The notes below the pieces were generated by a model. The model worked only from the letters and a program-made list of their open reading frames with translations, had not been told where the DNA came from and searched no databases. A program made the translations under genes and the position numbers. Source: a virus. Taken from it: 14,330 nucleotides of DNA. Every line of letters starts with the position of its first letter. The first letter of the stretch is position 1. The stretch lies in UHGV virus genome UHGV-0200011, one strand, 5' to 3'. Positions 1,950-6,845 of the stretch are shown in pieces.

Positions 1950-2024
1950 GGGTCAGAAGCACAGCGGTTGTGCGTTCGGCTGTTAACCGAATGGTCGAAG
2001 GTTCGAATCCTTCCTGTCCCGCCA
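1950..2024 (+). tRNA. tRNA-like gene, anticodon GUU (Asn), non-canonical
   Basis: Hand-folded cloverleaf: acceptor GGGTCAG / CTGTCCC (one T-T mismatch), D-stem GCAC/GTGC, anticodon stem TTCGG/CCGAA with loop CTGTTAA, variable loop TGGTC, T-arm GAAGG-TTCGAAT-CCTTC, discriminator G and encoded CCA. Positions 8-9 are AA rather than U8. Confidence 0.5.
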
Positions 2025-3338: not shown

Positions 3339-3617
3339 ATGACCAGAATGAGCACCATTTACAGCAGACTTTCATATGGAACAGGCACCACGCTGACCGG
3401 CTGCGGTGTATCAGCGAAGGCATATGCCGAAACAGCAAAAACAGCAAAAGAGGTGTCCTGGATGTTGGCCGACAGAATTGCAGGGTTAAGCCTGAGCGAC
3501 TGGGCAATTATTGTCGGTATCGCATGCACGGTAATCACCTGTGCAGTGAACTGGTATTTCCGCTGGAAAGAACGGGAGGATCGGCGCAATGGCTATGTCT
3601 CTAAAGCTGAAGAATAA
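3339..3617 (+). CDS. Holin, P21 S-type pinholin-like, with dual-start motif
   Basis: 92-aa ORF with a Gly/Thr/Ala-rich first hydrophobic segment and a second TM segment (WAIIVGIACTVITCAVNWYF) followed by KEREDRR, resembling S21 as recalled. N-terminus MTRM gives two in-frame starts (3339 and 3348) separated by a basic residue. GGAGGTGAGG precedes the ATG. Confidence 0.75.
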   Translation: MTRMSTIYSRLSYGTGTTLTGCGVSAKAYAETAKTAKEVSWMLADRIAGLSLSDWAIIVGIACTVITCAVNWYFRWKEREDRRNGYVSKAEE

Positions 3618-4137
3618 ATTGAGCGCAGCGGTCGTTGGTTTGATTCTTGCCGGGGCTTCCGCACCCGTGATTCTCGATCAGTTTCTGGATGAGAAAGAGG
3701 GTAACAGCTTGACAGCATATCGCGACGGCGGCGGACTCTGGACCATTTGCCGTGGTGCAACAATGGTTGATGGCAAGCCAGTAGTACAGGGCATGAAGCT
3801 GTCAGCTGAGAAATGCGCCCAGGTAAACGCCATTGAACGCGACAAGGCGCTGGCGTGGGTTGACCGAAATATCAAAGTACCACTGACCGAACCACAGAAA
3901 GCGGGTATCGCTTCTTTCTGCCCATATAACATCGGCCCCGGAAAATGTTTCCCGTCTACGTTCTATAAGCGAATTAATGCTGGCGATACGAAAGGAGCCT
4001 GTGAAGCTATCCGCTGGTGGATTAAAGACGGTGGCCGCGATTGCCGCCTGACCAAGGGCCAGAAGGATGGATGTTATGGGCAGGTAGAACGGCGGGACCA
4101 GGAAAGCGCACTGACGTGCTGGGGGATAGACCAGTGA
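3589..4137 (+). CDS. SAR endolysin (T4-lysozyme-like, GH24 muramidase)
   Basis: N-terminal signal-anchor-release type segment (LSAAVVGLILAGASAPVIL) then E-x8-D-x5-T catalytic spacing (EGNSLTAYRDGGGLWT), resembling P21 R21 as recalled. Start overlaps the holin 3' end. Confidence 0.85.
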   Translation: MAMSLKLKNKLSAAVVGLILAGASAPVILDQFLDEKEGNSLTAYRDGGGLWTICRGATMVDGKPVVQGMKLSAEKCAQVNAIERDKALAWVDRNIKVPLTEPQKAGIASFCPYNIGPGKCFPSTFYKRINAGDTKGACEAIRWWIKDGGRDCRLTKGQKDGCYGQVERRDQESALTCWGIDQ

Positions 4138-4637
4138 AGCCGGGTGGCATCTGCATCATTGTGATTGTTGCGTTGGTAGGTTCGTTTCTCGCTGGCAGTG
4201 AGTGGACGAACCGCAGCTGGAAAATAAAGTGGGCTGACCGGGATAGCGCGGAATCTTCACAGGAAGCGAATGCACAGACCGCAGCTCGTATGATTGAACA
4301 AGGGCGAACAATCGCCCGGGATGAGGCCGTTAAAGATGCTCAAGCTCAAGCAGCGAGCGCTGCCGTTACTTCTGCTGGCCTGGCTACCACTGTTAAGCAG
4401 CTGCGCGCCGAAGCAACAAAACTCGCTACCCACATGGACGCCGCAAAGCACACCGCAGATCTCGCCACTTCCGTCAGAAGCAAAACAGCCGGAGCCAACG
4501 CAGCAATGCTTGCCGACATGCTCGGAAGCCTTGCAGAAGCAGCTCGATATTATGCTGGACGATCTGACGAAAGCTACCGGGCAGGAATGACGTGTGAGCG
4601 GATTTACGAATCAGTGCGACTGTCGAATAACCAATAG
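4134..4637 (+). CDS. Rz: Rz-like inner-membrane spanin (i-spanin)
   Basis: GTG 4134 overlaps the endolysin stop (GTGA) and is in frame with the 4041..4637 ORF. N-terminal TM helix ICIIVIVALVGSFLAGS followed by an Ala/Gln-rich coiled-coil-like periplasmic domain. The ORF-track start at 4041 lies inside the endolysin gene. Confidence 0.7.
   Translation: MKPGGICIIVIVALVGSFLAGSEWTNRSWKIKWADRDSAESSQEANAQTAARMIEQGRTIARDEAVKDAQAQAASAAVTSAGLATTVKQLRAEATKLATHMDAAKHTADLATSVRSKTAGANAAMLADMLGSLAEAARYYAGRSDESYRAGMTCERIYESVRLSNNQ
4336..4590 (+). CDS. Rz1: Rz1-like outer-membrane lipoprotein spanin (o-spanin), embedded in Rz in the +1 frame
   Basis: Signal peptide with lipobox LLSSC, then a proline-rich mature region, wholly inside Rz in another frame. 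Start chosen at MLKLKQ (4336); in-frame alternatives exist at 4294 and 4321. Confidence 0.65.
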   Translation: MLKLKQRALPLLLLAWLPLLSSCAPKQQNSLPTWTPQSTPQISPLPSEAKQPEPTQQCLPTCSEALQKQLDIMLDDLTKATGQE

Positions 4638-5116: not shown

Positions 5117-5731
5117 TTATCTCTTTGTTGCGTTCATGGTCACATGGTAAACGAATTGGCTAAATTGGTTATCCCAGCGCCCATTATGATTAGCTGCAAC
5201 TAATTGCATTAACGCCTGCATTAACTTGCTGAACAGCAAGATTAACTTAAGTCTGTTTTTTGAACTGTCACTATCTAAGGAAACTTCTTCGGTTAATTGA
5301 TTCTCGGCGTTAAAAATACCCAGTTTTGATTCTTCCATGCTGGGTTCCGTTGGATGCTGTTTAAAGTATTCAGTCAGAGTATCCTTCAGGCTCTGGATCC
5401 TTGAATCAGCAATGCTTTGTATTGATGGATTGTGTGCAAGGTCATTACGCATTGAGTTGATGGTTTTAAGTGATTTCATAAGTTCCGGGGGGATTCCCAG
5501 GTTTCCCGCCATGGATATTTTAGTATTACATTCGATTAAAAGTTTGTTTTTATCTCTTCCAAAGAGATCTTGGCAGTCACAGCATGCGCATATCCATGCT
5601 TCGACCATGCGCTCACAAAGTAGGTGAATGCGCAATGTAGTACCCACATCGTCATCGCTTTCCACTGCTCTCGCGAATAAAGATGGAAAATCAATCTCAT
5701 GGTAATAGTCCATGAAAATCCTTGCATTCAT
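5117..5731 (-). CDS. HEPN-like (R-x4-H motif) hypothetical protein; candidate abortive-infection/defence moron
   Basis: 204-aa minus-strand ORF with a strong RBS (GGAGGA 4 nt before the ATG), embedded in an AT-rich island. Contains SMRNDLAHN (R95-x4-H100) resembling the HEPN / Abi-type motif. Opposite orientation to all flanking phage genes. Confidence 0.7.
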   Translation of the reverse strand: MNARIFMDYYHEIDFPSLFARAVESDDDVGTTLRIHLLCERMVEAWICACCDCQDLFGRDKNKLLIECNTKISMAGNLGIPPELMKSLKTINSMRNDLAHNPSIQSIADSRIQSLKDTLTEYFKQHPTEPSMEESKLGIFNAENQLTEEVSLDSDSSKNRLKLILLFSKLMQALMQLVAANHNGRWDNQFSQFVYHVTMNATKR

Positions 5732-6116
5732 AAATCCTCCAGGTAGCTATATGCAAATTGAAACAAAAGAGATGGTGATCTTTCTAAGAGATGATGGAAT
5801 CTCCCTTCAGTATCCCGATGGTCAATGCGCTGGATATGGGATAGATGGGAATATGCTGATTTTTATGGGACAGAGTTGCGAACTGTTCCCAACTAAAATC
5901 ATTTTGCACGATCAGCGCACTACGAACTTTACCCACAAATAGTCAGGTAATGAATCCTGATATAAAGACAGGTTGATAAATCAGTCTTCTACGCGCATCG
6001 CACGCGCACATCAAAGAGAGTCTTTCAGTAGTGAGCCTGGGTGATGCCGTTAGGTTGCGTTTACCTCTCGGGCGGCATTGCCGTGCGACAGGCTCACGCC
6101 TAAAAGGAAATATTCC

Positions 6117-6845
6117 ATGAGTAACAAAATCATTACGCTATCTGGCGCTGCTAATGAAGTGCTTTATGCGCTGTTTTTCCGTGGCGCGTTGCTGTCTGGT
6201 GATCTGCCTTCTAAATCTGGCACAGCCGAATTGCGCGAGCTTGGTTTTGCTGAAACCAGACACACAGCAACTGAATACCAGAAAGAAAATCACTTTACCT
6301 TTCTGACATCAGAAGGGCAGAAATTTGCCGTTGAACACCTGGTCAATACGCGTTTTGGTGAGCAGCAATATTGCGCTTCGATGACGCTTGGCGTTGAGAT
6401 TGATACCTCTGCTGCACAAAAGGCAATCGACGAGCTGGACCAGCGCATTCGTGACACCGTCTCCTTCGAACTTATTCGCAATGGAGTGTCATTCATCAAG
6501 GACGCCGCTATCGCAAATGGTGCTATCCACGCAGCGGCAATCGAAACACCTCAGCCGGTGACCAATATCTACAACATCAGCCTTGGTATCCAGCGTGATG
6601 AGCCAGCGCAGAACAAGGTAACCGTCAGTGCCGATAAGTTCAAAGTTAAACCTGGTGTTGATACCAACATTGAAACGTTGATCGAAAACGCGCTGAAAAA
6701 CGCTGCTGAATGTGCGGCGCTGGATGTCACAAAGCAAATGGCAGCAGACAAGAAAGCGATGGATGAACTGGCTTCCTATGTCCGCACGGCCATCATGATG
6801 GAATGTTTCCCCGGTGGTGTTATCTGGCAGCAGTGCCGTCGATAG
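6117..6845 (+). CDS. Hypothetical protein (242 aa) immediately upstream of cos
   Basis: ORF with AAGGAAA RBS 8 nt before ATG 6117 (the ORF-track start at 6078 lies inside an upstream palindrome). No family recognised; no obvious TM segment or signal peptide. Confidence 0.65.
   Translation: MSNKIITLSGAANEVLYALFFRGALLSGDLPSKSGTAELRELGFAETRHTATEYQKENHFTFLTSEGQKFAVEHLVNTRFGEQQYCASMTLGVEIDTSAAQKAIDELDQRIRDTVSFELIRNGVSFIKDAAIANGAIHAAAIETPQPVTNIYNISLGIQRDEPAQNKVTVSADKFKVKPGVDTNIETLIENALKNAAECAALDVTKQMAADKKAMDELASYVRTAIMMECFPGGVIWQQCRR

Follow-up and report, generated by a model that had tools for sequence, protein, structure and literature searches.

Positions 1950-2024 of the window (the whole 14,330-nt stretch of viral DNA analyzed here, UHGV virus genome UHGV-0200011) carry a tRNA-Asn(GUU) gene which, judged from its sequence and that of its relatives, is very probably a working gene. 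In the tRNA cluster found between the tR' terminator and the lysis genes in many lambdoid prophages of the Enterobacterales, it always comes first. Taken as a whole, the observations are most likely explained by a functional lambdoid tRNA-Asn that would be expressed through Q-dependent read-through, that has kept its odd structural traits, and whose benefit is more likely to be insurance than codon supply.

The window comes from a lambda-like prophage with the gene order RusA, Q, holin, lysozyme, DUF2514, Nu1 and gpA terminase subunits, lambda-type portal and E-type major capsid. The best match to an E. coli chromosome covered 78% of the window at 99.9% identity. The tRNA-Asn gene is placed on the late strand between the Q, pR'-like and tR'-like elements and the holin gene (3339), and the lysis cassette provides the first late protein genes 3' of the tRNA region. 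The features of this part of the window were as follows.

1162-1851, + strand: late-gene antiterminator Q gene, 229 aa (Pfam PF06323 Phage_antiter_Q, E=1.7e-101)
1835-1863, + strand: pR'-like sigma-70 promoter candidate, TTGCAA-17-TATATT (consensus scan match only)
1867-1940, + strand: short leader RNA of 74 nt, counterpart of lambda 6S RNA and Gifsy-1 IsrJ (Rfam RF01393 isrJ)
1918-1948, + strand: tR'-like intrinsic terminator, stem 1918-1924/1931-1937, loop 1925-1930, U-rich tract 1938-1948 (RNA fold)
1943-1949, + strand: 7-nt 5' leader or spacer CATTTCA, from the T-run to tRNA-Asn (read directly)
1950-2024, + strand: tRNA-Asn(GUU) with encoded CCA; U4·U69, A8, A14, U21 and G73 (ARAGORN, Rfam, parsed cloverleaf, RefSeq, conservation and covariation)
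2030-2051, + strand: 5' remnant of a tRNA-Thr(UGU) gene, positions 1-22 (identical to the intact gene of E. coli M37H and Enterobacter phage ENT1)
2060-2485, + strand: HNH endonuclease gene, 141 aa (phrog_4234 HNH endonuclease, E=9e-20)
2483-2517, + strand: 3' remnant of the tRNA-Thr(UGU) gene, positions 35-69 (identical to intact positions 35-69)
3339-4637, + strand: lysis cassette, comprising holin 3339-3617, lysozyme 3589-4137 and DUF2514 spanin-like 4041-4637 (Pfam PF16080/PF04971, PF00959 and PF10721)

ARAGORN run on the 14.3-kb window returned a single tRNA, tRNA-Asn(gtt), at 1950-2024 on the + strand. The Rfam tRNA model RF00005 matched positions 1950-2021 with 63.9 bits (E=3.4e-12), against a gathering score of 29 bits. 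A sequence-only reading of the window had proposed a tRNA-Asn(GUU)-like gene with these same ends and had named predictor scores as a check; both programs agree with it. For scale, the E. coli host tRNA-Asn scored 72.6 bits with the same model, the tRNA-Asn of phage T5 55.4 bits, and all T5 tRNAs 33-69 bits, the score of 63.9 bits being above that of most T5 tRNAs.

The gene was parsed as GGGTCAG/AA/GCAC/AGCGGTT/GTGC/G/TTCGG/CTGTTAA/CCGAA in the 5' half, followed by TGGTC/GAAGG/TTCGAAT/CCTTC/CTGTCCC/G/CCA. Standard pairs occupy 20 of the 21 positions in stems of 7, 4, 5 and 5 bp. The exception, U·U at 4:69, is the acceptor-stem T-T mismatch of the earlier reading and was also the sole non-standard pair flagged by the Rfam model. 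The cloverleaf had a folding energy of −25.5 kcal/mol, compared with −26.1 kcal/mol for the minimum free energy structure. The universal tRNA core consists of U8, A14, G18 G19, A21 and T54-Psi55-C56. Of these, A14, the GG pair and a TTCGAAT T-loop are present, with A in place of U8 and U in place of A21. The AA at positions 8-9, listed in the sequence-only reading as an irregularity, is indeed there; the oddity is limited to A8, as A9 is common among tRNAs. E. coli AsnRS recognizes G34, U35, U36 and the discriminator G73. All four are found here, the first three within the loop CUGUUAA, and from these identity elements the tRNA is predicted to be a substrate for charging by AsnRS.

Relatives with 75-87% identity were found in virulent phages, namely the Demerecviridae Aeromonas AhP_Mru1 and Vibrio vspsw1 and, among the Ounavirinae, the Erwinia Hena2/phiEa21-4 group. 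They share the 5' pattern GGGUNNG-AA-GCAY with A8, A14 and U21, a U4 without a Watson-Crick partner in any of them, the CUGUUAA loop, G73 and the encoded CCA. They differ in lying within multi-tRNA clusters rather than behind a Q-controlled terminator, and in having stems altered by compensatory changes. In a family alignment of 11 sequences, A8, A9, A14, U21 (the last base of the D-loop), the loop CUGUUAA, G73 and CCA were invariant (11/11); position 21 is normally A in tRNAs and U8 is near-universal. Changes on both sides were seen in 9 of the 21 cloverleaf pairs. Alignment cells were paired in 93.1% of cases, compared with 42-46% when the partners were slid as a control, and the observed covariation was reached by none of 500 shuffles. 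At 4:69 six sequences have U·G, five have U·U and none has a Watson-Crick pair; the neighboring 5:68 appears as C-G, G·U, U·G and U·U.

On this alignment, A8, U21 and the non-Watson-Crick 4:69 are to be read as conserved signatures of a phage tRNA-Asn family and not as damage. The tRNA would be expected to function despite A8 and despite U4·U69, which gives a weaker acceptor stem, because these positions are conserved and because T5 too has tRNAs without U8 (Thr with A8, Ser with A8 and with C8, Asp with G8).

Lambdoid loci were collected with a search pattern in which the D and anticodon arms alone were fixed, giving at least 120 viral contigs. The pattern fixes 31 of the 75 positions, and D-arm and anticodon-arm variation of the lambdoid group therefore lay outside the sampling. 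Of 127 loci collected, 104 had the identical 75-mer. A later set of 130 loci comprised 77 distinct 70-nt upstream contexts, and the reference tRNA-Asn was present in 62 of them. In this 130-locus set, the 43 tRNA-Asn positions left free by the pattern had a diversity of 0.034, compared with 0.56 in the upstream hairpin and 0.64-0.69 farther out on both sides. The spacer is conserved as YRTTTCA in most contexts, positions −12 to −1 having a diversity of 0.20 (0.56 in the hairpin). The same tRNA-Asn occurs behind three unrelated Q families: PF06323 in the window, PF03589 in Klebsiella phage GZ7 and PF06530 in HK639. Representative genomes containing it were from Serratia, Klebsiella, Pantoea, Enterobacter, Cedecea, Atlantibacter and Citrobacter.

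The two odd positions were kept within the lambdoid group. Position 8 is A throughout the set. Of the 84 unique lambdoid combinations, 76 have T at position 69, five have G and three have C. None has A, and T-to-A is the one change that would restore the 4:69 pair. In a minority lineage (loci L025 and L008, and Pantoea) the T stem carries the compensatory changes A49-U63 to C-G and A50-U62 to U-A (75-mer numbering), and 4:69 is U·G.

The region 5' of the gene has the layout of a lambdoid late promoter. The Q gene of the window is named 'bacteriophage antitermination protein Q' in RefSeq where the same gene occurs in E. coli L6-21. The promoter candidate at 1835-1863 lies just 5' of the start of the isrJ-like RNA (1867), and RF01393 matched 1867-1940 over its full length with 68.7 bits (threshold 37). 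The 3' end of this RNA is formed by the GC-rich hairpin at 1918-1948. A terminator scan of the window did not list this hairpin, presumably owing to its T-window rule; RNA folding and the isrJ model confirm it. Because a Q gene, a promoter-like site and an isrJ-type RNA lie upstream, the tR'-like label that had been given to the terminator is justified. The five-T run occupies 1938-1942 and the tRNA starts at 1950. The intervening 7 nt agree with the earlier statement that the gene begins 8 bp past the T-tract.

The junction is a general feature of the group. A GC-rich hairpin, a T-tract and the YRTTTCA spacer precede tRNA-Asn in nearly every context, and at least eight unrelated hairpin sequences are used there. 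A separate promoter for tRNA-Asn was considered and rejected: a consensus scan between the T-run and the gene found no site, and 7 nt are too short to hold one. It is a reasonable inference that expression would depend on Q-mediated read-through from pR', since the spacer is too short for a promoter and the junction of terminator and tRNA has been kept behind three different Q families. As pR' is constitutive in lambdoid lysogens (PMC7547250), leaky read-through could provide some tRNA-Asn in the lysogenic state as well.

In the proposed mechanism, transcripts from pR' would normally end at the hairpin and U-tract, which finish 2-7 nt before tRNA-Asn. Q-modified RNA polymerase would read through the tRNA into the late genes. 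A cut by RNase P is predicted at 1949/1950, and trimming at the encoded CCA end would then release a tRNA chargeable by AsnRS.

In all 106 loci with enough downstream sequence, tRNA-Asn was the first gene of the cluster. It stood alone in 29 of these, was joined by tRNA-Arg(UCU) in 30 and by tRNA-Thr(UGU) in 25. The others held Gly(UCC) and Thr with or without Arg, or further combinations; tRNA-Lys(UUU) was found in none of the 106 clusters.

In the window the second tRNA gene has been lost. ARAGORN and Rfam searches of the window called no tRNA at the tRNA-Thr remnant. A 431-bp insert (2052-2482) replaces 12 nt (positions 23-34) of the tRNA-Thr gene and is filled nearly completely by the 426-nt HNH ORF, whose stop codon is the TAA of the old tRNA-Thr anticodon loop. 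The acceptor 3' end of the tRNA-Thr has degenerated, with CTCCA after position 69 where the intact gene has GCACCA. The ORF is named 'HNH endonuclease' in RefSeq (WP_001568783.1). Pfam and NCBIfam searches of the ORF gave no significant match; PHROGs matched. The same tRNA-Thr/HNH junction was seen in 10 other loci. On the evidence of these junctions, the tRNA-Thr gene is one that an HNH endonuclease gene has split. The insert was also considered as a self-splicing group I intron. This was rejected: Rfam showed no intron at gathering thresholds, the ORF takes up almost the whole insert, and the tRNA both lacks 12 nt and has a degenerated acceptor 3' end. In the T5 annotation, HNH genes are interleaved with tRNA genes, one of them overlapping a pseudo-tRNA.

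The sequence-only reading had left the gene as either functional or decaying. A decaying pseudogene, with its structure being lost through the U·U mismatch and the absence of U8, would account for the departures of U4·U69 and A8 from the canonical tRNA. It would also suit the destroyed tRNA-Thr next to it and the few copies that carry extra stem-breaking changes (Klebsiella sp. R390, locus L119 and Klebsiella phage 2b LV-2017). Against this, the mismatch-bearing sequence recurs without change in several genera and in 62 of 77 unrelated contexts, A8 and the non-Watson-Crick 4:69 are common to distant virulent-phage relatives whose other stems covary, the score exceeds that of most T5 tRNAs, and RefSeq carries no pseudogene flag. 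Decay is thus rejected as scarcely credible, and a functional gene is strongly favored because of the identity across contexts, the covariation and the conserved odd positions. The extreme identity might alternatively reflect mainly shared homology, used to swap Q/regulatory and lysis/structural modules by recombination. The gene is a 75-nt island of near-100% identity between essentially unrelated flanks (0.03 versus 0.56-0.69), with differing gene modules on both sides. Recombination at the site could contribute part of this identity beside selection. It accounts for spread, however, and not for the kept tRNA fold, the identity elements or the covarying stems of distant relatives, and it is unlikely as the main cause. 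The idea is compatible with a working tRNA and is not an alternative to it.

A different role is suggested by the conserved abutment of the tRNA on the terminator, with a spacer of ∼7 nt whatever the hairpin or Q family. The gene might be a tRNA-shaped RNase P signal that parts the leader sRNA from the late mRNA, with decoding secondary or absent. In that case production of the isrJ-like RNA would continue under antitermination, and a new 5' end would be created on the late mRNA. Short pR' RNAs can indeed be regulatory sRNAs (StxS, PMC7547250), and an isrJ match is found here. A processing signal nevertheless needs no invariant CUGUUAA loop, G73 or encoded CCA across the family, and family members sit within ordinary virulent-phage tRNA clusters that have no terminator. 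This explanation was judged very unlikely, and a tRNA active in decoding is preferred.

For such a tRNA the classical account of phage tRNAs is codon compensation (review PMC10264068). Here the benefit would be added decoding capacity during the late protein burst. Codon usage in the 14 genes of the window was compared with that in 32 genes of one E. coli strain with an identical region. Asn codons made up 40.2 per 1000 codons in the window genes and 35.4 in the host sample (AAC/AAU 21.9/18.3 and 20.2/15.2). The median E. coli host has four identical tRNA-Asn genes, which already share the anticodon. The codon comparison proposed in the sequence-only reading thus leaves its rationale unsupported, and codon compensation for Asn was rejected, as there is no meaningful excess over host genes. 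By contrast, the codons of the partner tRNAs Thr(UGU), Arg(UCU) and Gly(UCC) were enriched 1.8-3.9 times in the window (per 1000: ACA 13.2 versus 7.3, AGA 5.1 versus 1.3, GGA 12.1 versus 6.6), which speaks for a supply role in the cluster. The optional partners fit codon supply better than does Asn, yet the invariant member of the cluster is Asn and not one of these rare-codon tRNAs. The benefit of tRNA-Asn is probably not codon supply, and added decoding capacity in the late burst is left as a possibility of modest weight.

Insurance against tRNA-cleaving defenses is plausible as the benefit. The AriB nuclease of PARIS cuts between positions 40 and 41, acting on Lys(UUU) and Thr(UGU) and less strongly on Asn(GUU); altering U39 abolishes cleavage (PMC12409363). 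The Lys(UUU), Thr(UGU) and Asn(GUU) tRNAs of T5 itself neutralize PARIS, and overexpressed T5 tRNA-Thr(UGU) and tRNA-Lys(UUU) restore both cell growth and T7 infection under PARIS (PMC12409363). Gifsy-1 has a HEPN nuclease, HepS, which responds to lambda-type tail-tip proteins by cutting the tRNAs for Thr, Ile and Ser (PMC13043305). The lambdoid tRNA-Asn has the anticodon of the secondary AriB target Asn(GUU). At the AriB site it has C39/G41 and the host U39/C41; chance alone would be expected to give such differences when tRNAs are unrelated. In the partner tRNA-Thr of the phages these positions are G39/U41. By analogy with T5, tRNA-Asn and tRNA-Thr(UGU) may, tentatively, be nuclease-insensitive copies that counter PARIS-like, HepS-like or other tRNA-cleaving systems. 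A8/A14/U21, the non-Watson-Crick 4:69 and C39/G41 would then be determinants of evasion. The first late position would mean that the tRNA is made before the tail- or head-protein triggers accumulate. Against a defense role, the anticodon loop is identical to that of the host, so nucleases that cut the loop would not be evaded through loop sequence, and the main PARIS target, tRNA-Lys(UUU), is missing from all 106 clusters. The conjecture preferred here is that the gene more likely insures Asn decoding during late expression against tRNA-cleaving defenses of the host or of its prophages.

The tRNA-Asn gene call is already known from public records and in itself adds nothing. Standard pipelines annotate the identical sequence as tRNA-Asn, without a pseudogene flag, in RefSeq E. 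coli prophages, and several Klebsiella phage records also annotate it. The HK639 record has no tRNA-Asn annotation; ARAGORN calls the gene there. The region was matched in 107 of 5,426 complete genomes. A literature search found no description of the lambdoid tRNA-Asn signature (A8/A14/U21 with non-Watson-Crick 4:69), nor of its constancy as first late gene and its conserved abutment to tR'. A paper on pR' regions (PMC6266700) makes no mention of tRNAs. The pattern may be of specialist interest: one and the same tRNA, unchanged among mosaic lambdoid phages from many enteric genera, always comes first after tR', duplicates an abundant host tRNA, and retains A8 along with an imperfect acceptor stem. 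Codon supply and anti-defense are the two positions in the debate on why tRNAs are kept by temperate phages. The tRNA-Asn provides a simple case for testing them, being present in E. coli phages, HK639 among them, that are amenable to genetics.

The tRNA-Asn of the E. coli host (asnT/U/V/W) shares with the phage gene the CUGUUAA loop, G73, a variable loop of 5 nt that includes G46 and C48, and a GTTCGA-type T-loop. It differs in having U8, an acceptor stem made entirely of Watson-Crick pairs, an 8-nt D-loop and other stem sequences throughout. The experimentally studied T5 tRNA-Asn (GGTTCCT-TA-GCTC...) was compared directly as a possible relative and belongs to a separate lineage, unrelated beyond general tRNA features. 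With the PARIS-neutralizing tRNAs of T5 the likeness lies in the same anticodon, in a departure from the host near 40|41 (C39/G41 here, G39 in T5 Asn) and in the frequent companion Thr(UGU), which is also an AriB target. T5, in contrast, is virulent, carries a large early-region tRNA cluster and includes a tRNA-Lys, which lambdoid clusters do not; it is for the T5 tRNAs that resistance and rescue were demonstrated.

Among lambdoid phages, the closest arrangement is that of the Stx phages 933W and Sp5, in which ileZ-argN-argO lies between Q/pR'-tR' and stx, so that tRNAs on the late strand likewise precede late protein genes. The anticodons there are those of Ile and Arg, compared with Asn here. 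A short RNA from pR' lies upstream in both, StxS being an Hfq-type sRNA (PMC7547250) and the RNA of the window being of the IsrJ type. The succession of pR', short RNA and tR' is itself known from lambda 6S RNA and from StxS (PMC7547250). In Sp5 transcription of the tRNAs appears to begin at a separate start between tR' and stx2AB (PMC7547250); the window differs in leaving 7 nt and having no promoter-like site in them. Gifsy-1 of Salmonella resembles the window in IsrJ, which 1867-1940 matches over its full length up to the terminator abutting tRNA-Asn. Gifsy-1 differs in having no tRNA-Asn there, and the match ends at query position 109, before the tRNA. In kind, the gene is a lambdoid late-region tRNA gene like those of 933W and Sp5 and a duplicate of a host isoacceptor like those of T5.

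The features of the late region that surround the tRNA-Asn(GUU) gene were located in the window as follows.

1867-1940, IsrJ-like RNA, IsrJ being a Hfq-binding sRNA of Salmonella (full-length match to Rfam RF01393, 68.7 bits)
2030-2517, tRNA-Thr(UGU) gene, interrupted by an insert
2060-2485, HNH endonuclease gene, borne by that insert
2741-2933, match to the STnc100 sRNA family (RF02076, 71.7 bits, full-length)
5117-5731 (-), ORF of phrog_5483 (E=1.6e-80), a PHROG family of unknown function
6078-6845 (+), ORF of phrog_17079 (E=9.5e-170), also a PHROG family of unknown function

In the 11-sequence tRNA-Asn family alignment (A2), members from Erwinia phages (L133/L136) were found to carry three successive U·U oppositions in the acceptor stem (GGGTTTG / CTTTCCC). 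Even so, these genes are annotated as tRNA-Asn, and the clusters that contain them are ordinary tRNA clusters. The family seems to be marked by an acceptor stem that is weak in its middle part.

The tRNA-Asn is also present in phage HK639 (L002), where it is unannotated in the GenBank record. It is followed there by a sequence (L002 about 2614-2690; alignment A1 columns 219-305) resembling the tRNA-Gly(UCC) of ENT1, an Enterobacter phage with an intact tRNA-Thr. ARAGORN made no tRNA call at this Gly(UCC)-like sequence, which is therefore probably a decayed tRNA-Gly.

Junction mapping against tRNA-Thr showed that 431 bp of inserted DNA (2052-2482) divide the tRNA-Thr(UGU) gene and stand in place of Thr positions 23-34. 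The TAA of the anticodon loop doubles as the stop codon of the HNH gene, and the 3′ acceptor end of the tRNA-Thr has degenerated. An identical tRNA-Thr/insert junction was found in 10 further loci. The arrangement looks like the invasion of a tRNA gene by a homing endonuclease.

Across the 106 related late-operon loci, the majority of the cluster tRNAs read ANN codons and hence carry U36 (Asn GUU, Thr UGU, Arg UCU, Ser GCU and Met CAU), the exceptions being Gly UCC and Phe GAA. Decoders of ANN codons are also the reported targets of the tRNA-cleaving defence nucleases PARIS AriB (PMC12409363) and HepS (PMC13043305). The bias could have arisen from rare-codon supply or from nuclease pressure.

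In the window, the STnc100-like match comes after the tRNA/HNH region and before the holin gene, and its end is formed by a terminator-like hairpin at 2903-2922. Both PHROG-family ORFs are flanked by the lysis cassette on one side and the terminase genes on the other; one of them may be a moron-like insert, as it is on the opposite strand.

Judged by its position, the IsrJ-like RNA is the short transcript running from the late promoter pR' to the late terminator tR' of the UHGV-0200011 prophage. By implication, the Gifsy-1 IsrJ corresponds to lambda 6S RNA and to StxS.
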